DNA of 64,000 nt. Origin: Spirochaetia bacterium. Its GTDB lineage: Bacteria > Spirochaetota > Spirochaetia > UBA9216. Under the pieces are notes generated by a model. The model was given only the letters and a program-made list of their open reading frames with translations. It had not been told where the DNA came from and searched no databases. The stretch spans positions 64,001 to 128,000 of the forward strand of contig OY776510.1 in assembly GCA_963675665.1 (NCBI GenBank). Direction: 5' to 3'. Position 1 is the first letter of the stretch. The number at the start of each line of letters is the position of its first letter. The position numbers were made by a program, and so were the translations under genes. This document shows, in pieces, positions 1 to 59,665 of this stretch.

Positions 1-950
1 ACTGCTATCAGCAAAATGGAACCTCTTACAACATACTGGTAGAAAGTAGGGATATTCAGAAGATTCATCGCATCCTGAACAGTCCCCATGATAAGAACAC
101 CTACAATAGCTCCCTGGATAGGCGCAATTCCTCCGTTCAATGAGACCCCGCCGAGAACGCAGGATGATATTACGTTCAGCTCAAATCCCTGCGCCGCGTT
201 AGGCTGACCCGATGTCATTCTTGAAGATAAAATTACCCCTGCAAAACCGGCGACCAGACCCTGAAGGGTAAATATCATTATTTTTACCCGATCAACATTA
301 ATACCGGCAAGCCTGGCAGCCTCAACATTACCGCCAATAGCCAGAGTATTTTTCCCAAATGTCGTATTATTTATCAGAACGGCAAAAACCGCAAAACAGA
401 ATATTGTTATCCAGATAGGAGCGGGAATTCCGATAAAGATATTGTTTCCAAGTCCGAAAAAACCCGGGTTCCCAATACTGATTGCCTGGCCTCCGGAAAC
501 AATATAAGCAAATCCCCTGACTATCTGCATCATCGCAAGCGTAGTTATAAGCGCATTTATATGAAGTTTGGCAATAATAACGCCGTTCAGAGCACCGAAA
601 AGCCCGCCGGCAAGGATTCCGCATAGAATTCCCAGACCGACCGCGCCTGTACTGTTAATTATGACTGCAGCAACTACCCCCGAAAAGGCTACAATCGCAG
701 AGACAGAAAGATCAAAATCTCCGGAAGCCAGACAGAACAGCATTGTGCATGAAACCATCCCAAGCATTGAAACCGATAATGCAAGCGCAATCATGTTCCG
801 CCAGGTAAAAAAGTAGGGCACAAAAATTGACAATAAAATAAATAATACAATATATATAAAAAGCATACTCGAATTCTGCCATAAATTCCTGGCAATATCT
901 TTTACACCCTTCCTCTTCGTGTCCAGGCTGTTTTCTGCAATATTACTCAT
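1..950 (-). CDS. araH: Sugar (L-arabinose-type) ABC transporter permease, 3' end runs off the window
   Basis: ATG at 950-948 overlaps the araG stop (ATGA). Reverse translation gives hydrophobic CUT2 permease motifs (ASGDFDLSV, AIGGNVEAARLAGINV, SSCVLGGVSLNGG). Missing from the ORF track because it is truncated. Confidence 0.85.
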   Translation of the reverse strand, partial: MSNIAENSLDTKRKGVKDIARNLWQNSSMLFIYIVLFILLSIFVPYFFTWRNMIALALSVSMLGMVSCTMLFCLASGDFDLSVSAIVAFSGVVAAVIINSTGAVGLGILCGILAGGLFGALNGVIIAKLHINALITTLAMMQIVRGFAYIVSGGQAISIGNPGFFGLGNNIFIGIPAPIWITIFCFAVFAVLINNTTFGKNTLAIGGNVEAARLAGINVDRVKIMIFTLQGLVAGFAGVILSSRMTSGQPNAAQGFELNVISSCVLGGVSLNGGIAPIQGAIVGVLIMGTVQDAMNLLNIPTFYQYVVRGSILLIA

Positions 951-2470
951 AACTTAACTCCTGTAGAATCTTCTCTCTGTTCAAATTCCGGCAATGCATA
1001 ATGAAGAACCGATTCTTCCGTCGCATCGCTGCGCTGAATCTCCCTGACAATCCGGCCGCTCCTCATTACAAGGATTCTGTCCGCTACACCTATAACCTCC
1101 GGAAGCTCAGATGAAATAAAAATTATCGCGTTACCCTGTTCTGCGAGTGTATACATAAGTTTGTATATCTCGCTTTTGGTACCCACGTCTATTCCCCTTG
1201 TTGGCTCATCAAGAATAATCAGCTCTGTCGGCATTGAAAGATTTCTGGCAATAATAACCTTTTGCTGGTTTCCTCCTGAAAGGTTGCCGACAAGCTGCTC
1301 CATCGAAGGAGTTTTAATAGCAAGTTTATCAATAAAATCCGCGGCATTTTTTCTTTCACGCTTCTTGTCCAGAAACAGCCCGGCTTTAACATATTTCTTT
1401 CTGACGGAAATATTAATATTTTCATTAACATCCCGGACGGGAATTATTCCCTCTGCCTTTCGGTCTTCAGGACATAAGACTATACCTTCGGAAAGGGACA
1501 CTGACGGTGAACTTGTTTCTACAACTCTTCCGTTAAGTTTGAGCTCGCCTGTCTTCTTTTTATTCTGACCGTAGATCAGCCTCATCAATTCCGAACGTCC
1601 TGCGCCGACGAGTCCGAAAAAACCAAGGATCTCACCCTTTCTTACTTCAAAACTAACCGGTTCCGGAATTCCGGGACCTGCTATGTCATTTACCGTAAAA
1701 GCCGGCCCGCCTATTGTTCGTGCCCTGTAAGAAAAAATATCTTCTATCTTTCGCCCTACCATCTGGCTGACTATTTCATCATGTGTAGCTTTTTTAATAT
1801 CATCGTAGGTTATAATTTTCTTCCCGTCACGAAAAATTGTTAACGCGTCACACACTTCAAAAATTTCATTTAGCCGGTGTGACACATAAATAATGACGCA
1901 CCCCTGTTTCTTCAATGCATCAATAATTTTAAATAACCGGGCAGTTTCCTTCTCTGAAAGACTTGATGTGGGTTCATCAAATGCGATTATCCTCGCATTA
2001 TGAAGAAGAGCTTTGCCTATCTCTATCATCTGGCGCTGCGCAATTGGAAGATTCTTCACTTTAGTATTCGGATCAATCTTCTCCATCAGATGATCAAGCT
2101 CTTCCAGGCTGATTTTTTCAAGTTCCTTTTTGTCAATCAGCCCCCTTCTGACAGGTATATGCCCCAGCATAAGGTTTTCCGCCACAGACATATCAGGCAC
2201 AAGATTCAACTCCTGGTAGATTACTGCGGTACCTTCATCTATTGCTTCTTTCGGAGAATTAAACCTGCATTCTTTTCCGTTGACAAACAATGCACCGTCT
2301 GTCTGCGGATGCGCACCGCTTAATATTTTAAGCAATGTTGATTTGCCGGCGCCGTTCTCTCCTACAAGCCCATGAACCGATCCCTCTTTTACTGAAAGTG
2401 ATACATCATTCAGGGCTGTAACTCCAGGGAATTTCTTGGTTATGTTCTTGAATTCCAAATAAGCAGTCAT
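947..2470 (-). CDS. araG: Monosaccharide ABC transporter ATPase with tandem NBDs (AraG/RbsA/MglA type)
   Basis: GENGAGKST Walker A, DEPTSSL, LSGGNQQK signature and DEPTRGIDVG; 507 aa; lies between the binding protein and the permease. Confidence 0.9.
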   Translation of the reverse strand: MTAYLEFKNITKKFPGVTALNDVSLSVKEGSVHGLVGENGAGKSTLLKILSGAHPQTDGALFVNGKECRFNSPKEAIDEGTAVIYQELNLVPDMSVAENLMLGHIPVRRGLIDKKELEKISLEELDHLMEKIDPNTKVKNLPIAQRQMIEIGKALLHNARIIAFDEPTSSLSEKETARLFKIIDALKKQGCVIIYVSHRLNEIFEVCDALTIFRDGKKIITYDDIKKATHDEIVSQMVGRKIEDIFSYRARTIGGPAFTVNDIAGPGIPEPVSFEVRKGEILGFFGLVGAGRSELMRLIYGQNKKKTGELKLNGRVVETSSPSVSLSEGIVLCPEDRKAEGIIPVRDVNENINISVRKKYVKAGLFLDKKRERKNAADFIDKLAIKTPSMEQLVGNLSGGNQQKVIIARNLSMPTELIILDEPTRGIDVGTKSEIYKLMYTLAEQGNAIIFISSELPEVIGVADRILVMRSGRIVREIQRSDATEESVLHYALPEFEQREDSTGVKL

Positions 2471-2484
2471 TTTACTCCCTTATA

Positions 2485-2510
2485 ATAGCCGGGTCGATAA
2501 ACCCGGCTAT
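2485..2510 (-). terminator. Intergenic stem-loop between araF and araG (mRNA stabiliser or partial terminator)
   Basis: Perfect 10-bp stem ATAGCCGGGT-CGATAA-ACCCGGCTAT. Confidence 0.6.
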
Positions 2511-2533
2511 ACGTCTAATCTGTCAGTCTGTAT

Positions 2534-3547
2534 CTACTCGAGACCCATCTCTTTTCTGACCTGCTTGTAGTTGTCTCTGGTCATAAGTACACCTGATGTA
2601 AAAATCGCTTTATCGGGTTCAACACCGTCGGCAATCCATTTATACATATTGACTGAAGTCTCATAACCATGCTGTTTGGCTGCGAGAAGAACAGTTGCAT
2701 GAAAACCTGTCATTTCGGACTTTTCAAGTTCACCGACTGCGAGATCATTACCGTTGATTCCAACTCCGATAATATTGTCAGCCTTGAAACCGTTACCCTC
2801 AAGGGCTCTTACCCCGCCGATTGTCGTATCGTCGCATAATGAATAAACAAGCCAGTTTTCAATTTCAGGATGCGCAGCAACAAGAATATTGGTTGCGTCA
2901 AATCCACCTTCTGTTGTTGAATCGGTAGCAGTTGGAGCCTCAAAAACATTCGCTTTGGAAAATCCCATTTGAACAAGCATCTCAGTAGCTCCGTCCGTTC
3001 TCTCTTTGCTTGTTGGGAGCTCGTCGTATGTGAGACAATCCGCGCCGGTTTTACTCAGATCCCAACCCCTTCTTTTCGCTTCATCCATAAGGGCTTTGCC
3101 AACCTGCTTTCCGATTTCGTAAGCTGAAATACCCATATGATGTACTTCTTCCATAGGTTTGCCATCGGCACCTATAAATCGGTCGTCTACACTCATCAGC
3201 TTCATTTTATTCTGATCAGCTTTCATCTTGATTGAAGGCCCCAGCTTTACATCAGGTGTACATATAATAAATCCCTGTACATTCTGTGCTGCCATATTAT
3301 CTATTGCGGCAAGAACACTTTCACCATCGGGAGTACTTATCTTTATCAGTTCGAAACCGTACTCATCAGCCGCCTGCTGTGCAAACCTCCACTCATCCTG
3401 AAACCATGAACATTCCGCCAGTTTAACGAGGAATCCGATCTTTATCCCTTCGGAACCTTCAGCTTCCTGCTGCCCACCTGCAATAACCGGGCTGAGAACT
3501 GCCAGCAACAGAACCGCCGCGATTAGTAATGCCAGAATTCTTTTCAT
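2534..3547 (-). CDS. araF: L-arabinose-type periplasmic binding protein
   Basis: KIGFLVK..E..WFQDEW, ICTPDVKLGP and SVDDRF motifs match AraF. Likely start is ATG 3547 (MKRILALL, signal peptide, AGGQQE) after the AAAGGAG RBS. Confidence 0.85.
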   Translation of the reverse strand: MKRILALLIAAVLLLAVLSPVIAGGQQEAEGSEGIKIGFLVKLAECSWFQDEWRFAQQAADEYGFELIKISTPDGESVLAAIDNMAAQNVQGFIICTPDVKLGPSIKMKADQNKMKLMSVDDRFIGADGKPMEEVHHMGISAYEIGKQVGKALMDEAKRRGWDLSKTGADCLTYDELPTSKERTDGATEMLVQMGFSKANVFEAPTATDSTTEGGFDATNILVAAHPEIENWLVYSLCDDTTIGGVRALEGNGFKADNIIGVGINGNDLAVGELEKSEMTGFHATVLLAAKQHGYETSVNMYKWIADGVEPDKAIFTSGVLMTRDNYKQVRKEMGLE

Positions 3548-3583
3548 ATTAATCTCCTTTGTATGATTGTTTGTCGTTGATAA

Positions 3584-3600
3584 TGCACTATCCATGCCAA
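3584..3600 (-). promoter_or_regulatory. sigma54 (-24/-12) promoter of araFGH
   Basis: Minus strand TTGGCATGGATAGTGCA, GG-N10-GC spacing, about 37 bp upstream of araF; a sigma54 activator gene is adjacent. Confidence 0.8.
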
Positions 3601-3693
3601 CCCAGAATGATGGGAAACTGAAATATATAAATCCTTTTCATTCAAGAACTTATACTATAACATGCATTATCCTGAAATCTATATTTTTTTGTA

Positions 3694-3744
3694 ACGGGAA
3701 AAACCTCTCCCGCTCGAACTGATTTTACGGGAATATATTTTCCC
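3694..3744. promoter_or_regulatory. Two tandem palindromic enhancer (UAS) candidates
   Basis: ACGGGAA-N7-TCCC at 3694-3711 and 3727-3744, 33 bp apart and about 95-145 bp upstream of the sigma54 promoter. Confidence 0.6.
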
Positions 3745-3803
3745 ATTTCAGATTTTTTAAGAAAAACATTGAGTGATTAATACATCCTTATTATAATCCT
3801 TTT

Positions 3804-5108
3804 ATGTCTTATTCCATTCTTATTGTCGATGACGAGAAGCATATGTGCATATCGCTTTCGAAACTCCTGAATCTTCATGATTTTGAAACATCATATGAAA
3901 CAAATGCAGATGATGCCCTTGCCGTACTGAGAAAAGTTAAATTTGATCTGATAATAACAGATCTTAAAATGCCCGGAATGGACGGAATACGCTTCATCGA
4001 CAGAATAAAATCAATGAAGCTTCCTATTCCGATTATTATGATATCCGGTTACGCTACAGTAGAAAATGTCGTCGAAGCAATGCGCTGCGGTGCAATTAAC
4101 TTTTATTCAAAACCGGTAGACACCAGCATTCTTCTGGCTGAAATAAAAAAAATATTAAATATAAAAAGACTCCCCAGAGACAATATTCAGAACATCGTTA
4201 CTGAAAACAGGAAAATTAATGAACTGTTGATGTTTGCCGGTAAAGCCGCGCCTACGGACGCCCCTGTCATCATCACCGGTGAAAGCGGGACCGGAAAGGA
4301 ACTTTTCGCCTCTTATATTCATAATATGAGCAAAAGGAAAGAAAAACCTTATATCAAAATAAACTGTGCCGCCATACCTGAGAGCCTTCTTGAGAGTGAA
4401 CTTTTCGGACATGTGAAAGGCGCTTTTACAGATGCAAAAGAAAACCGAAAGGGCAAATTTGAAATAGCTGAAGGCGGAACAATCTTTTTTGACGAGATCG
4501 GTGAAATGAGCATGAAAACCCAGGCAAAACTGCTCAGGGTCATTCAGGAAAAAGAATTTGAACAGGTCGGATCCAATGATATAAAACATATGGACATCAG
4601 GTTTATTGCCGCAACAAACCGCAATCTTCAGGAAATGGTTGGACAGGGAGAATTCAGGGAAGACCTGTTCTACCGGTTGAATGTCGTAAGCATAAAAATT
4701 CCGTCCCTCCGCGAGCGCAAGGATGATATCCTTCCTCTTGCAAGACATTTCCTGAACGAAATGAACCTTATATACAACAAGCAGATTACGGAATTTACCG
4801 AAGAGGCCTCATCAGCCTTTCTTAAGCATGACTGGCCCGGCAATATCAGGGAACTTAAAAACACCATTGAACGTGCAGTCATCTTCTGTGAAGAAAACAA
4901 CCTTGGAATTGAATGCCTGCCGGAAGCATACCGCGACAGTATAAACGAAGAAAGCAGTAATCTGAAAAATGTATATGACAAGGTAACACGCGAGGTTATT
5001 CTTGACGCACTGGAAAAATCCAACGGTTCAAAACAGAAGGCTGCAGAGCTTCTGAATATTAACCGCAGAACACTTTATAATAAAATGAAACTGCTGGATT
5101 TGCTGTAG
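3804..5108 (+). CDS. NtrC-family sigma54-dependent response regulator (REC-AAA+-Fis HTH)
   Basis: LIVDDE/ITDLKMP receiver, GESGTGKE, ELFGHVKGAFTDA, FFDEIGE, WPGNIREL and a C-terminal HTH. Confidence 0.92.
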   Translation: MSYSILIVDDEKHMCISLSKLLNLHDFETSYETNADDALAVLRKVKFDLIITDLKMPGMDGIRFIDRIKSMKLPIPIIMISGYATVENVVEAMRCGAINFYSKPVDTSILLAEIKKILNIKRLPRDNIQNIVTENRKINELLMFAGKAAPTDAPVIITGESGTGKELFASYIHNMSKRKEKPYIKINCAAIPESLLESELFGHVKGAFTDAKENRKGKFEIAEGGTIFFDEIGEMSMKTQAKLLRVIQEKEFEQVGSNDIKHMDIRFIAATNRNLQEMVGQGEFREDLFYRLNVVSIKIPSLRERKDDILPLARHFLNEMNLIYNKQITEFTEEASSAFLKHDWPGNIRELKNTIERAVIFCEENNLGIECLPEAYRDSINEESSNLKNVYDKVTREVILDALEKSNGSKQKAAELLNINRRTLYNKMKLLDLL

Positions 5109-5114
5109 GTAAAT

Positions 5115-6923
5115 ATGAGTAAAATACTTGAAGTATCAAATATTAATTATTCATACGGAAATATCGAGGCGCTCTGCAGTTTTGATTTCGAACTGAACAA
5201 AGAGGAAATTCATGCCCTGACAGGCGATCACCGTTCAGGAAAATCAACCTTCGCAAAAATACTTGGGGGCGCCCTGAAAAACCAGAGCGGGCTTATTAGA
5301 CTTTTCGATAAAAACTTTCCGTTTCTTACCCCTAAAACCGCAATTCAGAACAGGATTGGCGTGGTTTACCAAACTCCTGAAACTGTACCGAATATGACGG
5401 TTGTAGAAAATATATTCATAGGCAGGATGCCCCATTTTCTTATAACCGGAAAAGACAAAGAACAGATGTGCAATACCTGCAGAGATCTGTTTGCCTGGTT
5501 GAATATTGATCTTGATATCGATACTCCTTTAAAAAAGCTGTCTTCAGGAGAACTGCAGATTGTAAGTATTGCCAGGGTATTATCTCTCGGGGTTAAGATT
5601 CTTGTACTTGATGAAATATCTCAACTGCTTACCCCGGCTGAAATGCAGGACATCTACAGTATTTGCAGAACAATCAGAAAAAAAGGTATATCAACAATTT
5701 ATATAACATCCAATATTGATGAAACCTTCAGGATAGCGGATCGTGTAACTGTAATCCGGGACGGCTGCAGAACAGGAACAGAAAAGATAAAAACCGTAGA
5801 TCCTTCCAGGCTTGCAAACCTTGTTTATAACATGGCCTATTCTTCAGATAATGACAGAAAAAATAACGAACCTTTCTTCTTTTTTACCAACCATGAAAAG
5901 GCAATTGTTAAAGATTTACCGATAGGAATGATCGTGCTGGATAGTGAAAATAATCCCTTGTTGATAAATACTTCGGCAGAGAATATTCTTAAAAAGAGCG
6001 GAGAAACACGGGAAAGCAATCTTCTTCATGATATCTTTTCAATTATAAATTCGGATGAACTTGAAAATATTATTGAAGCAATAAAAAGCAGACAGGAATA
6101 TTCCAGGGAAAAAACTTTTACAGAAACCAGCAGATTCCTGAGTTTTAAATCAATACCACTTTATGACAACAACAGCAACTTTATAGGTACAAATATCTTT
6201 TTGGAAGATGTTTCTACCGAACACGATACGAAAGAATACCTCCTGCGAGCTGAACGAATTGCATCTACAGCTGAACTTGCGGCAGGCGTTGCCCATGAAA
6301 TCAATAACCCCCTCGGAATAATTCAGAATTATGTAGAAATACTAAGCATGAGCACTGAAGACCGGGAAAGCAGGGAACAACTGCAACAGATAAAAAGAGA
6401 ACTTGCGCGTATAGTTGAAATTGTCGGCAGCCTGCTTTCATTTTCCAGAGTTCAGAAAAACCCGCTTAAAACAATTTCAGTCGACTCGCTTCTGGATGAG
6501 GTGATTCTTCTTCTCGGACATAAGCTAAAAGATAAAAATATAAATCTTATTAAAAACTATGGAAAAGAATCCATAATAATAAAGGGATATGAGAACAGAC
6601 TTAAACAGCTGTTTATGAATCTTATTGTAAACGCAATTGAAGCGGTTCTGAGCGGCGGAAAAATAAAAATTGATATTGATACTTTCCAGGAACATGTCGA
6701 AATAAGTATTTCCGATAACGGTTACGGTATTTCCGAAAAGGTAAATAATGATATTTTCAAACCCTTTTTCAGCACTAAAATGACCAAGATGAATACAGGA
6801 CTCGGATTATCAATCTGTCAGCATATTGTCGAAACACATAAGGGGATAATTACCTTTGAAAGCCGTCCGGGAAACTGGACAAAATTTTCCGTAAGGCTGC
6901 CCCGGTTTCAGTCTAAAAACTAA
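5115..6923 (+). CDS. Soluble histidine kinase: sugar-ABC ATPase-like domain, PAS, HisKA, HATPase
   Basis: The first ~240 aa align with NBD1 of AraG (GDHRSGKST, VVYQ, LSSGELQ, LVLDE, YITSN). These are followed by a PAS domain, the H-box AHEINNPL, N-box NLIVNAIEA, and DNGYGI / GLGLSIC. Confidence 0.88.
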   Translation: MSKILEVSNINYSYGNIEALCSFDFELNKEEIHALTGDHRSGKSTFAKILGGALKNQSGLIRLFDKNFPFLTPKTAIQNRIGVVYQTPETVPNMTVVENIFIGRMPHFLITGKDKEQMCNTCRDLFAWLNIDLDIDTPLKKLSSGELQIVSIARVLSLGVKILVLDEISQLLTPAEMQDIYSICRTIRKKGISTIYITSNIDETFRIADRVTVIRDGCRTGTEKIKTVDPSRLANLVYNMAYSSDNDRKNNEPFFFFTNHEKAIVKDLPIGMIVLDSENNPLLINTSAENILKKSGETRESNLLHDIFSIINSDELENIIEAIKSRQEYSREKTFTETSRFLSFKSIPLYDNNSNFIGTNIFLEDVSTEHDTKEYLLRAERIASTAELAAGVAHEINNPLGIIQNYVEILSMSTEDRESREQLQQIKRELARIVEIVGSLLSFSRVQKNPLKTISVDSLLDEVILLLGHKLKDKNINLIKNYGKESIIIKGYENRLKQLFMNLIVNAIEAVLSGGKIKIDIDTFQEHVEISISDNGYGISEKVNNDIFKPFFSTKMTKMNTGLGLSICQHIVETHKGIITFESRPGNWTKFSVRLPRFQSKN

Positions 6924-7845
6924 AATCGGAAATTTCAATGTCCAGCGCCCATTCCCGTACTTCACAAGGACTTAGAACTGATTCGTTACCCCAGGCACGG
7001 GCAGCCACAGGATCATCCATCGGGGCGCTCGCCGGTTCCAGTGCCAGATTATACTGACTGTCCCAGCCGCCTGAGTTCATCCAGATTCCGAGCCAGGGTA
7101 GTTTATCAGCTGAAACCGACATTTTTATCTCAAACCCCTGCTTTTCACGTCTTAAAACAGACCATCCTGCAGTATTCTTCTGCCTGAAATAATATTTCCT
7201 GTACCCGTCGCAGGTTTTTTCCGGCATATCGGAAAACTCCTTTGTCCAGCCGTATTCCCGCCCGTAGTCCGGTAAATCAACCGAAGGAACTGCATTTATA
7301 ACTGAGGTCAGGTTATCCGGCACTATTATCCGGTCGTCTTTATCAACATTGAAAAGAGGATGAGCAGCATACAGAAAAGGCATCGGAAAAGGCGAAAGAT
7401 TTTCAACCCGGTAAACAGTTTTGATGCTCGAACCTTCCAGCCGAACCCTTTTTGAAAGCCGGTACGGTAACCTGACGCCGAAAACGGAGAATACGACATC
7501 TTCCGTTCTTTTTTCATCGCTCCAGGGAATGGCCCACACCTCTCCGTGATCCGGAAGCTCAACCCCGCGCCATGGAAAATCCGGACAAAGGCATTTATTG
7601 ATTGTTGGAAACATTTCGTCAAACCCGGCCTTTTCACCGTCGGGAAACGGCTGGGCATAGCTAACCGGCGCATGCACTTTCCCGGTGTTCTGCCAAAGAA
7701 GTTCACAGTCTGCAGACTTAAAGAGGATCGAGGCTGTCCTCGCGCCTGCAGCCGGAACTATTTCCACCCTGAGGTCCCTGTTATCTAAAACGACTGATTT
7801 CAGGTTCTTATAATTGTTCTCATATACATTCATTGCTTTTCTCAC
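6913..7845 (-). CDS. Aldose 1-epimerase / galactose mutarotase-like protein
   Basis: GFDEMFPT, LPDHGEVW, YAAHPLF and LALEP motifs typical of the mutarotase-like fold. Confidence 0.7.
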   Translation of the reverse strand: MRKAMNVYENNYKNLKSVVLDNRDLRVEIVPAAGARTASILFKSADCELLWQNTGKVHAPVSYAQPFPDGEKAGFDEMFPTINKCLCPDFPWRGVELPDHGEVWAIPWSDEKRTEDVVFSVFGVRLPYRLSKRVRLEGSSIKTVYRVENLSPFPMPFLYAAHPLFNVDKDDRIIVPDNLTSVINAVPSVDLPDYGREYGWTKEFSDMPEKTCDGYRKYYFRQKNTAGWSVLRREKQGFEIKMSVSADKLPWLGIWMNSGGWDSQYNLALEPASAPMDDPVAARAWGNESVLSPCEVREWALDIEISDFSF

Positions 7846-9110
7846 ACCACGGTATTGTTGAAAGACTTTACTTCATCAAACATTGCTATTACATTTTCAA
7901 CGGGCGTATTTCCCACTATATTATGTATCGTATTGAAAACAAAGCCGCCTCCCGGAGACAGTATTTCAAGTCTTTCCCTCACCTCTGAACGAACTTCTTC
8001 CGGATTACCGAAAGGAAGCGTTTGCTGGGTATCCACCCCGCCGCCCCAGAAGGTCAGTTTGCCGCCGTACTCCTGTTTAAGCATTCTGCCGTCCATTCCG
8101 GCTGCACTTAGCTGGACGGGATTGAAGATATCGAAGCCGGCCTCAACAAACTCGGGCAGAAAATTGACAATTGAACCGCAGCAGTGGAAATGAGAATACC
8201 AGTTTGTATTCTCATGAACCCAGCCGTTAAGAGCAGTATAGTGCTCCTTGTAGAACTCCCTGAAATGTTCCACCGACATAAGCTCTCCCGACTGACTTCC
8301 GAAATCAGTACATGAGATATTTATGGTTGTTATTTTATCCCCAACAGCCTGCTTTATTATTTCAAGATTTTTAAATGCCAGCTCAGTCTGCCAGGAAAAT
8401 AATTCTTTCAGGTAATCCGGGTAAAGATAGTGGGCCATATACCAGTCTTCAAGTTTTCTTATACCCCGGGGATGCTTTTCCCAGGGACCGGGTATAATAG
8501 CGGCGTCACCGAATCCCCCTCCATTGAAATTGAAATGTATTGCACAGTCGGTTTTCTCAAAAAGCTCTGAGCAGCTGTTCTCTATAAACAGTGCGTCCGC
8601 ATCACTAAAAACCCCGTAAAGTTCACTGAAATCACGTACCGGATCCATATCCGACTCGTCTATTGCAGGCGCACGATCAATATTATCGAAAAAAGTCCCG
8701 CCTACCGGCAGCCGTACGCTTGGCGGCACACTGCGATCTCCCTGCGGATAAACCACGCACCCGCCGTCTTCAGTTTCATCATACTGAAAATTACCCGGCA
8801 TATTGACGGGCGTCCCGTCGGGCATTCGCCACGCTCGCCAGCTGTCAAAACGTGTGCCGAACAGAGTTCCCGGACACCATAGCGGTACTGTATCCACCCC
8901 GAGGGCCTTTCTCAAATCTTCATCTATCGTTCCAAGCAGCTGAAAGGGTTCGCATATATCTATCGGTTTATCCTTAAGCCCAAGCTCCCTCCGAAGCTGA
9001 TACAGGACGCTTGCATTTATCCCGCTCTGCCCTGAAGCCCCCAGATCAAGCGGTACCCTGTCCGGCTTTTCATGCCTGAGGGCTTTTTTTATTCGTTCTC
9101 TTGACGTCAT
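7842..9110 (-). CDS. Uroporphyrinogen decarboxylase / cobamide methyltransferase (MtaA/CmuA-like) family protein
   Basis: MTSRERI..AL.HE.PDRVP start, HCCG, FNPVQ, FWGGGVDTQ and GGFVFNTIHNI. Confidence 0.8.
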   Translation of the reverse strand: MTSRERIKKALRHEKPDRVPLDLGASGQSGINASVLYQLRRELGLKDKPIDICEPFQLLGTIDEDLRKALGVDTVPLWCPGTLFGTRFDSWRAWRMPDGTPVNMPGNFQYDETEDGGCVVYPQGDRSVPPSVRLPVGGTFFDNIDRAPAIDESDMDPVRDFSELYGVFSDADALFIENSCSELFEKTDCAIHFNFNGGGFGDAAIIPGPWEKHPRGIRKLEDWYMAHYLYPDYLKELFSWQTELAFKNLEIIKQAVGDKITTINISCTDFGSQSGELMSVEHFREFYKEHYTALNGWVHENTNWYSHFHCCGSIVNFLPEFVEAGFDIFNPVQLSAAGMDGRMLKQEYGGKLTFWGGGVDTQQTLPFGNPEEVRSEVRERLEILSPGGGFVFNTIHNIVGNTPVENVIAMFDEVKSFNNTVV

Positions 9111-9241
9111 AACACCTGCCCCTTTAAAATATTCTCCTGAAGTATTTTATTGCTCATAAGATAACTACATACTAAATCATGATTAAATACAAATGAATGC
9201 ATGATATTGCATAAAAAACTGGATTATATTAATCTGATAAT

Positions 9242-10102
9242 ATGAGCAGACCGGAAGGCTTTAAAGACCAGGTTCTTCATGTTATTCCTCCTGAATTCTA
9301 TAATAATTCCGACAGATTAACAAAGCAGCTTTATATAACCGATATAGGTTACTTCCCTAAGGCAGAAGACCACTGGATCTCAAGAAATGAAGGATGTTGC
9401 TCGTCAATTTTGATAATATGTACCGGCGGCAGCGGATATCTTGAAACAAAAGACTACAACGGACGAGTCGCTCCCGGCGAGGCCGTGATTATTTCTCCGG
9501 GAATTCCTCATTCATACGGAAGTGCGGCAGGCACATTTTGGGAGATTTTCTGGGTCCATTTCAGCGGAGAGATGGCCGTGGAATTACAATACAACCTCTC
9601 AGGCAGCAAAAAGTGTTTTCCTTTCCAACTGATTCCCGGTGATGAAAGCATGGAACTTTTCAGTGAAATTTGTTCAACACTATCAGAAGGGTTAAGCCCG
9701 CTGAAATATGAATTGATATGCAGCCGGTTCTGGCATCTCGGCGGCAGCCTAACCGCTGATAAAAAACACGGCAACGGCACTTCCGCCGGCCTTGTAACAA
9801 AGTGTATGGAAGTAATAGAAGAGAACCTGAAAGGGTCTCTAAGTCTTGAACAACTCAGCAGTAAAGTCTCTGTAACCCCACAATACCTGTGCAGATTATT
9901 CAAACAAAAAACAGGTCAATCCCCTATTGAATATTATAACCAACTGAAAATACAGCGTGCACGCGGACTTCTCGATATGACTTCTCTCAGAATCAATGAG
10001 ATCAGCGCCGGCCTGGGATTTAACGACCCTTATTATTTCACCCGCGTATTCAAACGCATAATGGGAATATCACCACGCGATTACCGCAACAGACAGATAT
10101 AG
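9242..10102 (+). CDS. AraC-family transcriptional regulator
   Basis: N-terminal cupin (DIGYFP, PHSY, WVHF) and C-terminal double HTH (LGFNDPYYFTRVFKRIMGISP). Confidence 0.9.
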   Translation: MSRPEGFKDQVLHVIPPEFYNNSDRLTKQLYITDIGYFPKAEDHWISRNEGCCSSILIICTGGSGYLETKDYNGRVAPGEAVIISPGIPHSYGSAAGTFWEIFWVHFSGEMAVELQYNLSGSKKCFPFQLIPGDESMELFSEICSTLSEGLSPLKYELICSRFWHLGGSLTADKKHGNGTSAGLVTKCMEVIEENLKGSLSLEQLSSKVSVTPQYLCRLFKQKTGQSPIEYYNQLKIQRARGLLDMTSLRINEISAGLGFNDPYYFTRVFKRIMGISPRDYRNRQI

Positions 10103-11619: not shown

Positions 11620-11988
11620 TTATCTTTTATAAAGATAATTCGATTCACCTGCTGAATACCATTCACGGGCAAGTATGGATAAATCGGTTATCGTATATTC
11701 CAATGTTTCAGAATCCAGAAAATTATAATCTGCTTTAATACTGAAAACCCAGAATACCGACCAGATTTTAAGTTCATTGTCATCTGAATCTATACTCCAT
11801 TTTAAACCTATAGGGGCTTCACTAATCTCGCATTTCCCGTTTTCTTCAAATACAAAGGTTGTATCCCATTCATCTTCCCAGACTCCCACAAACCTGTCGC
11901 GATCATCCTCCAGCATAAGCCCTATCATATTGCACGATGTTATTAAAACAGCAGTAAGAATAATAATAAATAATAAACTTCTTTTCAT
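11620..11988 (-). CDS. Small lipoprotein of unknown function (paralog 1)
   Basis: MKRSLL...LITS-C lipobox; GGAGG RBS before ATG 11988; colinear with the neighbouring ORF. Confidence 0.75.
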   Translation of the reverse strand: MKRSLLFIIILTAVLITSCNMIGLMLEDDRDRFVGVWEDEWDTTFVFEENGKCEISEAPIGLKWSIDSDDNELKIWSVFWVFSIKADYNFLDSETLEYTITDLSILAREWYSAGESNYLYKR

Positions 11989-12051
11989 AGTTGCCTCCAA
12001 TTCTCTTCTTTTAAATAATATGACGACAGGCTGTGTTGTGTCAATTATTCC

Positions 12052-12426
12052 TTATCTTTTATAGAGATAGTAGGTTCTGCCTACCGAATAGCATTCACGG
12101 GCAAGAGCTGATAATTCGGTAATCGTCAGCGCAAGAGTTTCAGAGTCCTCAAAATCATAGTCCGCTTTTATATTTACCACCCACAAGGGAGACCATACTT
12201 TCAGCTCTTTGTCATCAGAGTCGATGCTCCATTTCAATCCTATAAGGAAATCGCTTATGTCGCAGCTTCCGTTTTCCTCAAACAAATAGATCTCACCTTC
12301 TTCATTCTCGTCCCAGGTTCCGATAAACATGTCACGGTCTTCTTCAAACATCAACCCTATCATGTTGCATGACGCCGTTATTACTGAAAAAAGGATTACA
12401 ATTAAAATCAATAAACTTCTTTTCAT
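12052..12426 (-). CDS. Small lipoprotein of unknown function (paralog 2)
   Basis: MKRSLL...ITAS-C lipobox; shares CNMIGLM, FEENG, IGLKWSIDSDD.ELK.WS, IKADY.F.DSETL and YLYKR with paralog 1. Confidence 0.75.
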   Translation of the reverse strand: MKRSLLILIVILFSVITASCNMIGLMFEEDRDMFIGTWDENEEGEIYLFEENGSCDISDFLIGLKWSIDSDDKELKVWSPLWVVNIKADYDFEDSETLALTITELSALARECYSVGRTYYLYKR

Positions 12427-15528: not shown

Positions 15529-17040
15529 TCAGTTAAGATAAATATTCCAGGGAAGAAGCTCCTGCCAATCTTCACTGGACTTCATCAACGGAGCTTCGGT
15601 AAATACTTTTCTCAGATAAACATAAGGGTTGAGATCGTTTTGCTTTGCTGTTTCAACAAGTGAATAAATCCCGCAAGAACTCTCAGCACCTTTTGGGCTG
15701 CCGGCAAACAACCAGTTTTTCCTGCCCAACACAAACGGCCTGATAGCATTTTCACAGGCATTATTATCCGGAGTCAAATAAGGTGATTCAAGATAATTTA
15801 CAAGTTTGCTCCATTGCCCAATTGTATATGATATCGCTTTTCCGAGTTCAGTCGAAGGAACAACATTATGCTGCCTTTTCTCAAGCCAGGAACTGAACTT
15901 GGCCAATAGCGGTTCTGCCTTCTTTTTTCTTTCTGCAAGAAACTCGGGTTCACTTAAGTTTTTAGCTCTGAGTTCATTCTCTATCAAATACAGTTTCTGA
16001 ATATATTTCAGCCCTTCAGCAGCACTGCCAGGTTTCTTGGATACTCTTGATGCATCAAAGAATTTCCGTCTTGCATGAGCAAAACAACCGGCATGAATTA
16101 TATCTGGATAATCTTTCAACGCTGTAACATATGCTTCATAACCGTCAGTCTGAAGATAGCCGCTGAATCCGTCCAGAAAACTGCGAATATTCTTAGAACC
16201 CCTCGTTTCATGATATTCATATAGAATTGCAACTTGCCCCGGAGGCCCCCCTCGGGCAAGCCACATATAGGAGTTTCGAGTAGCAGGCCTATCCGGTTCA
16301 TTGTGAACCTGTATTCTCGTTTCATCCATCTGCATAACCGAACCGGTTTTCAGATGTTCTTTCATCAGTTCAAGCAGGATTATAAGAGCTTCATATGCCT
16401 GTCTTTGCCAGTTGCTCATATCCTGTCGGCTTATGCTGATCCCTATTCGCTCAAATCTCTTTTCCTGCCGGTAGAAAGGCAAATGATCTACATATTTATT
16501 TACAAGCAAAAATGCAAGGAGCTCGGGTGTTACTATGCTTTTGGGAAAGATTGTGGGAGCAGTCGGGGCTATCCGCACCGCAGGTTTATCTTCATCTCCG
16601 CTGCCTTCACAAGTCTTACAGGCATATTTGGGTCTGATGGTTCTTTCTACCCACATCTGTTCCGGTACAACTTTTATTCGTTCGGATATTTCTTCGCCTA
16701 TTCTAACCAGTTCTGCTCCGCAAGCGCATTTCTTCTCTTCTTCGGGTATATCAATAAGGATTTCTTCACGGGGAAGATTCTCGTTTATCTTCTTTCGACC
16801 AGGTTTCTTTTTGGTATAGGATTCTACCTTCTGAGTTTCAGATTCTTCTTCGGGAGCAATATCCGGTTCACTATCAAAAAGTAATATCTGAGCGGCTGTG
16901 TCTTTCTCGCTGGAACGATTATATTTCTTGAACAATTCAAGCTTGAAACGCTCTTCCAGCGCCTGGTATTTCGTTGCCCATTTTCGTTCAATATCTTTGA
17001 TGTATTGCTGTACTTCTTCAGGAAGCTTTTCAACATCCAT
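15529..17040 (-). CDS. tnpC: IS66 DDE transposase
   Basis: Zn-finger CACG/CKTC, HLPFYRQ, MDET, LQTDGY, CFAHARRKF, DNNACENAIRPFVLGRKNWLF and LLPWN. Confidence 0.95.
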   Translation of the reverse strand: MDVEKLPEEVQQYIKDIERKWATKYQALEERFKLELFKKYNRSSEKDTAAQILLFDSEPDIAPEEESETQKVESYTKKKPGRKKINENLPREEILIDIPEEEKKCACGAELVRIGEEISERIKVVPEQMWVERTIRPKYACKTCEGSGDEDKPAVRIAPTAPTIFPKSIVTPELLAFLLVNKYVDHLPFYRQEKRFERIGISISRQDMSNWQRQAYEALIILLELMKEHLKTGSVMQMDETRIQVHNEPDRPATRNSYMWLARGGPPGQVAILYEYHETRGSKNIRSFLDGFSGYLQTDGYEAYVTALKDYPDIIHAGCFAHARRKFFDASRVSKKPGSAAEGLKYIQKLYLIENELRAKNLSEPEFLAERKKKAEPLLAKFSSWLEKRQHNVVPSTELGKAISYTIGQWSKLVNYLESPYLTPDNNACENAIRPFVLGRKNWLFAGSPKGAESSCGIYSLVETAKQNDLNPYVYLRKVFTEAPLMKSSEDWQELLPWNIYLN

Positions 17041-57683: not shown

Positions 57684-57700
57684 TGCAACAACTGTGCCAA
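57684..57700 (-). promoter_or_regulatory. sigma54 promoter of the kamD operon
   Basis: TTGGCACAGTTGTTGCA matches the TGGCAC-N5-TTGCA consensus. Confidence 0.88.
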
Positions 57701-57773: not shown

Positions 57774-57830
57774 TGATGCAAATAAGATTCAATGATTCGT
57801 TTTAGAATCGTTTGATTCATAAATGAATCG
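57774..57830. promoter_or_regulatory. Three tandem palindromic activator sites (TGATTC-N6-GAATC)
   Basis: TGATGC-N6-GATTCA at 57774, and TGATTC-N6-GAATCG at 57793 and 57813; about 20-bp period; 75-130 bp from the sigma54 promoter. Confidence 0.65.
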
Positions 57831-59574
57831 TTTTATTGAGGAGATCATTATTTTAAATTCAATTTTGAATTCGCTTGAAGAAGGAATACTGGTTGCAGAT
57901 CCTGAGTTAAGAATTATTTTCATGAACCCCAAGGCCGAAACGATTCTTAAACTGAATACCGACAAGCATACCGGCCGGGTTTTATGGGAAACTGATCTCG
58001 CCCCCGAGATACTCCTTATCCTGACATCAAAAAAAACGGGATACACCCACAGGCTTGATGTCGGAGGCGAATCCATTCTTGTAAAAGGACTGCCTTTTTC
58101 CGATAAAACAGAAGCAAAAGGTTCGATCTGGATAATACAAAGAACCTCTGATGCACCGGAAACAGACTCGCTCATCTGCAAAACAACCGAACAGGAACTG
58201 AACGCAATTATTGAATCGGTCTCCGACGGCATCTACGTAACGGACGGAAAAGGAATAACCCTGCGTGTTAATTCAGCTTTTCAACAGATTACGGGAATTA
58301 AAGAAAATGACGTTAAGGGTCTTCATGTTGAAGATCTGATAAAAATGGACGTCTTCAGGAAATCAGCTACAGTTTCCGTTCTTGCAGAAAAAAGACAGGT
58401 CAGTATGGTAGAGAACCTTAAGATAGGAAAAGAAGTTCTTCTTACCGGCACGCCTGTATTTGATAACAATAATGAGATCTTCAGGGTTGTAACCACATTA
58501 AGGGATATTGAAAGCCTCAATGAACTCAAGAAAAAGCTTGCCGTCTCCCAGGAAAAAACAAAACTGTATGAGAAGGAACTTTTTCAGCTAAGACTTCAGC
58601 AGATGGATATGGAGAATGTCGTAATTAACTCCCGCCAGATGCATGAAGCGGTACAGACCGCCATGCGCCTTGGAGAAGTTAATTCAAATGTGCTGATTTC
58701 CGGAGAATCCGGGGTAGGAAAGGATATTATTGCCAGAATTATACATAAAACCGGGCTCGGAGAGGACGCGCCGCTGATTACAAGCAATTGCGGGGCTATT
58801 CCGGAGTCATTAATCGAGTCTGAGCTCTTCGGATACGAAGGAGGCGCCTTTACCGGTGCGAAAAAAGAAGGCAGCCCCGGACTGTTTGAACTGGCCCGCG
58901 GAGGCACCCTTTTCCTGGACGAGATTGGAGAACTGCCGATCAGTTTTCAGTCGAAGTTCCTCAGGGCTATCCAGGAAAAGGAAATAAGACGAGTTGGGGG
59001 CAACAAGCCCATCAAACTGGACTTCAGGCTTATTGCCGCTACCAACCGTGATCTTGAAGAAATGGTCAGCAGGAAACTTTTTCGCAGCGACCTGTTTTAC
59101 CGGCTGAATGTTGTTCCTCTTAACATCCCGCCGTTACGGGAACGCAGGGAAAGTATCGTAATTTTTGTTTATAAATTCCTCGAAGTATATAACCGCCAGT
59201 TCAACAGGGTTGTTCAGATCAGTCCGGAAGCGCTTCAGATCCTCGAGGATTACGACTGGCCCGGAAACGTACGTGAACTGAAAAACCTGATTGAGCGGCT
59301 GGTGGTTCTGGTTGTCGGAAACGTTATTGAAGCAAACGATATTCCGAGATATATCAGAAGCGTACATTCGGAAGAAACAGAAAACCAGATCTCACTGCAT
59401 GGAATTATGCCGCTGAACAGGGCCATTGAGGAACTCGAATATCAACTGCTGACAAAAACTTACAAAAAATACTCATCAACCAGGGAAACCGCCAAAATAC
59501 TCGGTATCAGCCAGTCTCAGGTGTCGAGAAAACTGACCAAATACAATATCTATAACGGCCCCGAAGAAAACTGA
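57823..59574 (+). CDS. PAS-PAS sigma54-dependent activator
   Basis: Two PAS repeats, GESGVGKD, ELFGYEGGAFTGA, FLDEIGE, WPGNVREL and a C-terminal HTH. Confidence 0.92.
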   Translation: MNRFIEEIIILNSILNSLEEGILVADPELRIIFMNPKAETILKLNTDKHTGRVLWETDLAPEILLILTSKKTGYTHRLDVGGESILVKGLPFSDKTEAKGSIWIIQRTSDAPETDSLICKTTEQELNAIIESVSDGIYVTDGKGITLRVNSAFQQITGIKENDVKGLHVEDLIKMDVFRKSATVSVLAEKRQVSMVENLKIGKEVLLTGTPVFDNNNEIFRVVTTLRDIESLNELKKKLAVSQEKTKLYEKELFQLRLQQMDMENVVINSRQMHEAVQTAMRLGEVNSNVLISGESGVGKDIIARIIHKTGLGEDAPLITSNCGAIPESLIESELFGYEGGAFTGAKKEGSPGLFELARGGTLFLDEIGELPISFQSKFLRAIQEKEIRRVGGNKPIKLDFRLIAATNRDLEEMVSRKLFRSDLFYRLNVVPLNIPPLRERRESIVIFVYKFLEVYNRQFNRVVQISPEALQILEDYDWPGNVRELKNLIERLVVLVVGNVIEANDIPRYIRSVHSEETENQISLHGIMPLNRAIEELEYQLLTKTYKKYSSTRETAKILGISQSQVSRKLTKYNIYNGPEEN

Positions 59575-59649: not shown

Positions 59650-59665
59650 TGGCACACTTATTGCA
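59650..59665 (+). promoter_or_regulatory. sigma54 promoter of the CoA-transferase/kal operon
   Basis: TGGCACACTTATTGCA consensus match 33 bp upstream of the ATG. Confidence 0.88.

Follow-up and report, generated by a model that had tools for sequence, protein, structure and literature searches.

We identified a family of soluble histidine kinases in which an ABC nucleotide-binding domain (NBD) is fused to a PAS domain and a two-component kinase core. This family is real and conserved, is apparently unstudied so far, and looks like a variation on transporter-coupled two-component signaling. Its member in the window, the whole stretch of 64,000 nucleotides that we analyzed, is encoded beside an NtrC-type regulator and a divergent araFGH operon. 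The conserved gene layout gives good support to a circuit made of the kinase, the NtrC-type regulator, a sigma-54 promoter and the sugar importer, and we lean slightly toward a kinase that reads its importer through the NBD.

A kinase carrying a transporter-type ATPase domain

The kinase and its parts were assigned as follows.

5115..6923, +: histidine kinase (clade A of the family), 602 aa, ABC NBD - PAS - HisKA - HATPase_c, soluble
5115..5843, +: ABC NBD, residues 1-243, related to the CUT2 ATPase N-terminal NBD (motifs, alignment, model pLDDT 91.9)
5223..5249, +: Walker A GDHRSGKST, residues 37-45, with His39 in place of an Asn invariant in CUT2 NBD1
5610..5630, +: end of Walker B and reshaped D-loop DEISQLL, residues 166-172, Pro lost
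5709..5711, +: Ser199 at the switch-His position (alignment, VSHR/ITSN register)
5901..6212, +: PAS domain, residues 263-366, the least conserved among the folded domains
6273..6905, +: kinase core; HisKA contains His394 (6294-6296), HATPase_c the N, G1, F and G2 boxes

The ORF runs without internal stops, and Pfam placed ABC_tran at residues 23-168, HisKA at 387-447 and HATPase_c at 492-597, all above cut-off, together with PAS_10 at 263-366 (23.8 bits, cut-off 22.1). Residues 1-217 aligned with NBD1 of the neighboring AraG at 30% identity (E 9e-31) and with NBD2 at 28% (2e-15). The preliminary description had recognized an NBD1-like stretch in the first ~240 aa, had given the Walker A and D-loop sequences listed above, and had placed a PAS-HisKA-HATPase module behind them without a transmembrane helix; all of this was borne out. 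Neither hydropathy nor AlphaFold models revealed a membrane helix, and the most hydrophobic 19-mer (KD 1.96, residues 147-165) corresponds in the models to an NBD helix and the Walker B strand. The NBD was modeled as a confident ABC NBD (pLDDT 91.9, pTM 0.90), closest to LivG-type MJ1267 and LptB (Z 27.9, rmsd 2.3-2.5 over 226-237 residues). In the full-length model (mean pLDDT 76, pTM 0.57) the domains were confident and the linker 230-265 was not resolved.

By its motifs, namely a phospho-accepting His together with N, G1, F and G2 boxes, the protein would class as a HisKA-type two-component histidine kinase. Residues H394, E395, N502, N506, D534, G536, G538, P550, F551, G562 and G564 are invariant in 81 aligned members. 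The NBD is conserved to the same degree as the catalytic domain, and the PAS domain, likely a relay, less so (82, 82 and 56% to homolog P0002; mean column conservation 0.60, 0.63 and 0.45). The PAS-HisKA-HATPase core and the REC-AAA+-HTH regulator resemble AtoS/AtoC and NtrB/NtrC. Unlike AtoS, however, the kinase scored 236 bits against a cut-off of 646 with the AtoS NCBIfam equivalog model, and its first 258 residues fell outside the match. With the AraG model it reached 158 bits (cut-off 689), having a single ABC_tran stretch and not the two fused NBDs of a CUT2 ATPase. No whole-length match was found among NCBIfam families or PDB chains, and Foldseek found no PDB chain spanning both halves (best TM-score 0.37).

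Family members and their genomic context

The ABC_tran-PAS-HisKA-HATPase fusion was present in 239 of the 240 listed homologs, these being the best 120 matches to the window kinase (119 with the fusion) and the best 120 to a distant paralog (all 120). An assembly or frameshift artefact, which the preliminary description had named as a possible undoing of its proposal, was rejected on these grounds. Database labels often read "AtoS" or "ATP-binding cassette protein", and both are mislabels for this family. With the source genome counted, members occurred in 19 of 61 related genomes, including 7 of 10 of the same taxonomic family, and in 14 of 401 genomes drawn from the phylum (three candidates scored per genome). 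Source names were Spirochaetota and KSB3/Moduliflexota, plus single others; named Oceanispirochaeta strains carry members, one KSB3 genome has three, and the source genome itself harbors eight paralogs. A public contig is identical over 2300-7200 of the window, of which it may be the source. Two kinds of sequence looked damaged: P0040 (851 aa), seemingly misassembled with its PAS-HisKA stretch duplicated, and the kinases of L211 and L213, which are fragmented, as are their ATPases.

Full-text searching of the open-access literature brought up no description of an ABC NBD-histidine kinase fusion. In the ESM Atlas the family was present only as automatically named clusters. A search of 50% clusters returned mostly ordinary CUT2 ATPases, with no new architecture among 150 listed, and an Atlas search without HisKA returned plain ATPases only. 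One locus search gave mostly ordinary kinases, with full-length members in 6 of 80 loci, and in another, judged on the best 11 of 80, the first 8 were members and the next 3 ordinary ATPases.

In a quick tree of 59 kinase NBDs, 31 NBD1, 15 NBD2, 2 single-domain sugar ATPases and 9 other ATPases, the kinase NBDs formed two clades among CUT2 NBD1 sequences (support 99 each; joint support for a single origin 55), and the window kinase fell in clade A. A recent copy of the adjoining araG was rejected as the origin of the NBD, both by this tree and because over 40 other ATPases of the genome outscore AraG.

Around the kinase, the window contains the following features.

3804..5108, +: NtrC-type response regulator; REC with Asp53, sigma-54 AAA+ with GAFTDA loop, Fis HTH
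3696-3711 and 3729-3744: two imperfect palindromes, 33 bp apart, predicted activator sites
3584..3599, -: predicted sigma-54 -24/-12 promoter of araFGH, 2 mismatches to consensus
2534..3548, -: araF, for an arabinose-binding protein similar to solved AraF (E 1e-101); 3548 is the likely start
947..2470, -: araG, CUT2 ATPase with two fused NBDs (NF008442, 756.7, cut-off 689)
3..950, -: araH, CUT2 permease (NF008441, 463.7, cut-off 378); extends past the window, whole in L018 (331 aa)

The regulator lies upstream of the kinase, as the preliminary description had it, and ends 6 nt before it. This arrangement is general: among 60 distinct kinase loci (one duplicate contig left out), an NtrC-type regulator lay directly upstream in 59, and the remaining locus was cut by a contig end. 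The genomes of these loci are kin, so this and the following counts are not independent. The proposal that araFGH is read from a sigma-54 promoter fared less evenly. The site (3585-3599) is 37 nt upstream of the probable araF start (an ORF call from 3595 would overlap it), but taken alone it is not above chance, with 38 such matches in the window against 46 expected; a site pointing away from the regulator nevertheless recurred in 42 of 56 assessable loci. The rpoN gene is present in the source genome (domain over cut-off), and all parts of an NtrC-type sigma-54 circuit, namely the REC Asp, a GAFTGA-type loop, a -24/-12 site and rpoN, are predicted here. The palindromes are found farther up, at distances of 112 and 145 bp from the sigma-54 site; a similar motif was seen in 4 of 16 other clade A loci, a partly circular count since the pattern was drawn from the same loci.

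A CUT2 ATPase or permease lay within 6 kb of the kinase in 47 of 52 assessable loci, a further 8 being cut by contig ends. This linkage had been expected; the accompanying expectation that the switch His would be lost along with it does not extend to the whole family (see below). Five assessable loci had no CUT2 ATPase or permease despite at least 7 kb of context. The idea that the kinase is always beside a transporter was rejected on account of these exceptions, and the kinase is apparently able to function without an adjacent importer. In the source genome (5.15 Mb, 70 two-NBD CUT2 ATPases, 26 sigma-54 activators), 7 of the 8 paralogs were within 5 kb of a CUT2 ATPase; among the 37 other kinases only 4 were, and among randomly chosen places 16%. 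Similarly, a sigma-54 site preceded 6 of 8 linked CUT2 ATPases and 5 of 62 others. Two of the CUT2 ATPase ORFs, at 1379910 and 2422487, had identical scores and may belong to a duplicated block. Each intact linked operon that we examined retains its ATPase; the L106 operon, with permease and binding protein and seemingly none, reflected an ORF-calling error, and tblastn recovered the gene. In 5 loci the kinase beside AraFGH belongs to clade A, but in one KSB3 locus (L022) an AraFGH ortholog (AraH 67% identical) has a clade B kinase, so both clades have served this importer.

Several loci departed from the common layout. At three of the five importer-less loci, L016:8624-17400, L215 and L216 (L214 is short and alike), regulator and kinase face a sigma-54 operon with no transporter, which encodes two Zn-dehydrogenases, a glycyl-radical enzyme of the PFL2/glycerol-dehydratase family and its activase; a related glycyl-radical enzyme lies within a CUT2 operon with a sigma-54 site in L015. 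Four of the five importer-less loci have catabolic or redox genes behind a sigma-54 site, or have retained the site. At L020:2953-9797, two back-to-back regulator-kinase pairs each face their own CUT2 operon. The importer genes of L122, L125, L204 and L205 are on the same strand as regulator and kinase, and no sigma-54 site was found adjoining the regulator. The neighbor in L101 and L204 is a single-domain sugar ATPase, which indicates that CUT2-like permeases can be served by separate NBDs.

Left of the window, beyond araH (L018:6152-8949), are a lactonase-like gene, an SDR and a galactonate dehydratase, the last above its NCBIfam cut-off. These genes suggest an oxidative route, with galactose perhaps a substrate as well. 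Window 6913-10102 holds epimerase-like and URO-D-like genes convergent with the kinase, plus an AraC regulator, and genes resembling these border the ara loci L099, L100, L102 and L103. Farther along, two small lipoprotein-like ORFs, alike and in tandem, were noted at 11620-12426, and an ORF of 503 aa resembling an IS66-type transposase at 15529-17040, and two perfect sigma-54 consensus sites, at 57685-57699 (-) and 59650-59664 (+), flank a gene for a 583-aa sigma-54 activator (57823-59574).

Nucleotide site and permease-facing groove of the NBD

We counted motifs in 239 family members (119 of clade A, 120 of clade B) and in 70 NBD1 and 70 NBD2 sequences from the source genome. The window kinase keeps the A-loop Y14, K43, Q86, D166 and E167, and so does nearly the whole family (A-loop aromatic 227/239, K43 238, Q86 238, D166 239, E167 235), which indicates that nucleotide binding is under selection. 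In contrast, Walker A position 39 is Asn in 70/70 NBD1 and in 0/239 members (His in 224), and the D-loop Pro168, found in 67/70 NBD1, is likewise kept in 0/239. Asn39 touches the Asp of the partner D-loop, and both elements function across the NBD dimer. By sequence position, the changes shared by the family would all map to the NBD-NBD face, and their presence throughout suggests that this face has been rebuilt. The ABC signature is degenerate in the kinase NBDs, as it already is in NBD1; in RbsA, one ATP site is described as degenerate in a passage of PMC11466899.

The preliminary description had reported the switch His as lost to Asn and had inferred a pseudo-ATPase. The His is indeed absent from the window copy, which reads ITSN (residues 197-200) where AraG reads VSHR, but it is Ser199 that takes its place, and Asn200 replaces the Arg. 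The wider conclusion was too strong: the His is kept in 148/239 members (35/119 in clade A, 113/120 in clade B) and the catalytic Glu in 235/239, and retention of the Glu does not point to a dead enzyme. A kinase homodimer would have two sites without a canonical signature, likely binding ATP with little hydrolysis.

The groove that receives the permease was located from passages on MalK (F81-Y87 and A73; cleft 81-87; PMC7658222) and LptB (F90 and R150 in the groove, L72 and H73 cross-linking to LptFG; PMC5082905), and was mapped through the LptB of the source genome. The window kinase has retained K48, Y85, V91, P92, N99, G103 and R154. Conservation in clade A (n=119) was high: K/R48 in 97, an aromatic residue at 85 in 112, P92 in 110, N99 and G103 in all 119, and K/R154 in 116. 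In clade B (n=120) the groove is partly changed (K/R48 7, P92 3, G103 0), and these kinases are still linked to importers. ABC-F proteins (n=7; Q86 1, N99 0, G103 0, K/R48 6, K/R154 5) were set aside as a no-permease control because their alignment is unreliable in this region; since K/R48 and K/R154 occur in ABC-F too, neither is specific for docking. In the transporter-less subclade (L016, L214, L215, L216), residues 69-80 of the NBD are deleted, covering the positions of L72 and H73 in the LptB passage, and Walker A, here with Asn, Walker B and the switch His are kept. This deletion is a single event. The importer-linked paralogs of L013, L014, L015, L017 and L209 are as degenerate as unlinked ones. 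In clade B, the 6 unlinked kinases had a median NBD profile score of 143 bits against 193 for 23 linked ones (kinase core 249 and 280), and we claim no p-value since four of the six belong to one subclade.

We then considered a predicted complex of NBD 1-243 with two AraH. It scored 0.47, the best control reaching 0.00, and lends weak support to docking; inputs were alignments of 73 rows (NBD) and 37 rows (AraH), and the controls included no other NBD. The runs shared at least 95% of contacts, with a partner pLDDT of 78. Of 157 solved pairs, 116 reached the mark applied, and of 215 mismatched ones, 2 did; only 18 of the solved pairs, but both mismatches, reached it at 0.60 or under. The pass may reflect mere likeness to solved NBD-permease structures of ABC transporters, and a sequence search of the PDB found no CUT2 permease. 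Over 30 loci, the partial correlation between NBD and permease divergence (0.17, p 0.064) did not reach significance, nor did it on a thinned set of 22 loci (0.13, p 0.19), and the same test on the PAS domain and on the kinase core gave about zero. The similarity excess of the kinase NBD to its own neighboring ATPase was not significant either (p about 0.09, 30 loci).

How the kinase may sense its importer

The kinase has no membrane or periplasmic sensor, yet eight paralogs stand by different operons, so a specific input is needed. The preliminary description had proposed docking on AraH. Groove conservation in clade A, gene linkage, the groove deletion in the transporter-less subclade and the complex prediction speak for it and make it the best reading of the data, whereas the co-evolution tests do not support it. 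We judge it by a narrow margin probable that the groove of the kinase NBD docks on AraH, probably replacing AraG, and reads the conformation of AraH. In a minority of permease dimers, the NBDs of a kinase dimer would then sit on both AraH coupling helices, and sugar-loaded AraF would switch the kinase by way of AraH. The docked NBDs may bind ATP and hydrolyze it slowly or never, the opening and closing of the pair being the signal, which could pass from the post-NBD helix through the PAS domain to the DHp helix. Sugar might act either by turning kinase activity on or by turning phosphatase activity off. From the conserved gene layout, the kinase would phosphorylate the regulator at Asp53, and the phosphorylated regulator would activate the sigma-54 promoter from which araFGH and the catabolic genes that follow are expressed. 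More tentatively, AraF and AraH2 could carry either AraG, for transport, or the kinase dimer, as a receptor. Such subunit exchange would make the importer a transmembrane receptor, one per importer by kinase duplication, and the importer-less lineage would have lost its docking helix.

Other readings have to be weighed against docking on AraH. The kinase might sense a cytosolic sugar or catabolite directly, in a PAS or NBD pocket, its linkage merely reflecting regulation of importers. PAS domains are capable of ligand binding, a variable PAS suits differing ligands among paralogs, regulators commonly adjoin their targets, and the five importer-less loci, four with catabolic or redox genes or a retained sigma-54 site, fit as well. 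However, the PAS domains of kinases adjoining AraFGH are no more alike (25-27% to P0001) than those of unrelated loci (22-28%), unlike their NBDs (40-44%), and the retention of a CUT2-specific NBD with a permease-facing surface is left unexplained; we hold this reading to be rather unlikely. It is also improbable, to a greater degree, that the NBD binds AraG instead of or besides AraH, swapping with NBD1 and pairing with NBD2 into a live ATP site, which would amount to true flux sensing. The domain does derive from NBD1 and keeps its half of the live site (K43, Q86, D166 and E167, and the His in many members), every intact linked operon examined retains the ATPase, and the lost residues face the ATP site whose degeneration in CUT2 ATPases, as the passage of PMC11466899 describes, had already taken place. 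Yet a covalently tethered NBD1 would need displacing, the otherwise invariant Walker A Asn39 is replaced in all members, and the NBD does not co-diverge with its cognate ATPase (partial r of 0.01 and -0.02).

A stand-alone ATP/ADP sensor, through which energy state would control the kinase, would account for the nearly invariant nucleotide-binding residues, retained even in the transporter-less subclade, but a common nucleotide could not give eight paralogs eight specificities, and the CUT2 linkage would go unexplained. As the main input we regard this as very improbable; nucleotide sensing may rather be a second one. Hardly credible, finally, is an NBD that is a vestige or a mere dimerization scaffold with no sensing role: several paralogs of the source genome do have long NBD branches and eroded motifs, but the domain is whole in all but one of the listed homologs and conserved like the catalytic domain.

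The preliminary description had set its proposed mechanism apart from the BceAB-BceS and PstB-PhoU-PhoR systems; the kinase may work like either, but it lacks the defining features of both. It recalls BceS/BceR-BceAB, for which passages of PMC6978683 and PMC11109136 outline flux sensing, a kinase that lacks a dedicated sensor domain being proposed to monitor an ABC transporter whose genes it controls. In those passages, however, BceS is anchored in the membrane and its partner is a complete transporter for peptide resistance. The window kinase is soluble, brings its own NBD, and would serve a sugar importer and signal to a sigma-54 activator; the membrane-anchored intramembrane-sensing kinase and BceAB-type transporter are replaced by a protein without membrane helix and a CUT2 neighbor. 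As in PstSCAB-PhoU-PhoR, outlined in the same source (PMC6978683), an ABC importer would govern a PAS-containing kinase from the cytoplasmic side. There PhoU is described as bridging PstB and PhoR, whereas here the transporter-type domain is fused, and no adaptor was seen in the kinase loci, the window neighbors being araFGH, the regulator and epimerase-like and URO-D-like genes. With NBD1 of the CUT2 ATPases AraG, RbsA, XylG and YtfR, the kinase shares its fold and post-NBD helix, the A-loop, Walker A Lys, Q-loop and Walker B, and a degenerate signature; unlike them, it has a single NBD fused to a PAS-kinase, the D-loop Pro and Walker A Asn are lost throughout the family, and the window copy has also lost the switch His. 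In XylFII-LytS, ChvE-VirA and LuxP-LuxQ, as presented in a passage of PMC8050422, sensing likewise probably begins with a Peripla_BP sugar-binding protein, and a sugar ABC operon (xylFGH) may be among the targets. LytS, VirA and LuxQ own an extracytoplasmic domain and membrane helices in that account. The window kinase lacks both, so that a signal from outside would have to reach it across the membrane by way of the permease. A transporter part is also built into CbrA/CrbS with their STAC domain, described in passages of PMC5715377 and PMC11109136; there a membrane transporter domain is fused, whereas the window kinase carries only the soluble motor domain, Pfam detecting neither an SLC5 transporter nor a STAC domain.

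In the described transporter-dependent kinases, the kinase touches an intact membrane transporter directly or via an adaptor. If docking holds true, a kinase bearing the motor domain would report directly on the coupling between NBD and permease by which every ABC importer is driven, and would lend itself to the study of CUT2 permeases. The family also suggests a way in which sugar-fermenting spirochetes and KSB3 bacteria could control part of their large sets of importers. For the window copy the class of ligand is known (arabinose/galactose) and the partners resemble those of E. coli, which makes it directly testable. NBD-kinase fusion may have occurred more than once: ranks 2-3 of the ESM Atlas search were clusters of 826 and 852 aa, mostly Actinomycetota, with ABC_tran and HisKA and in one case GAF_2 (score 0.84), possibly a parallel fusion.
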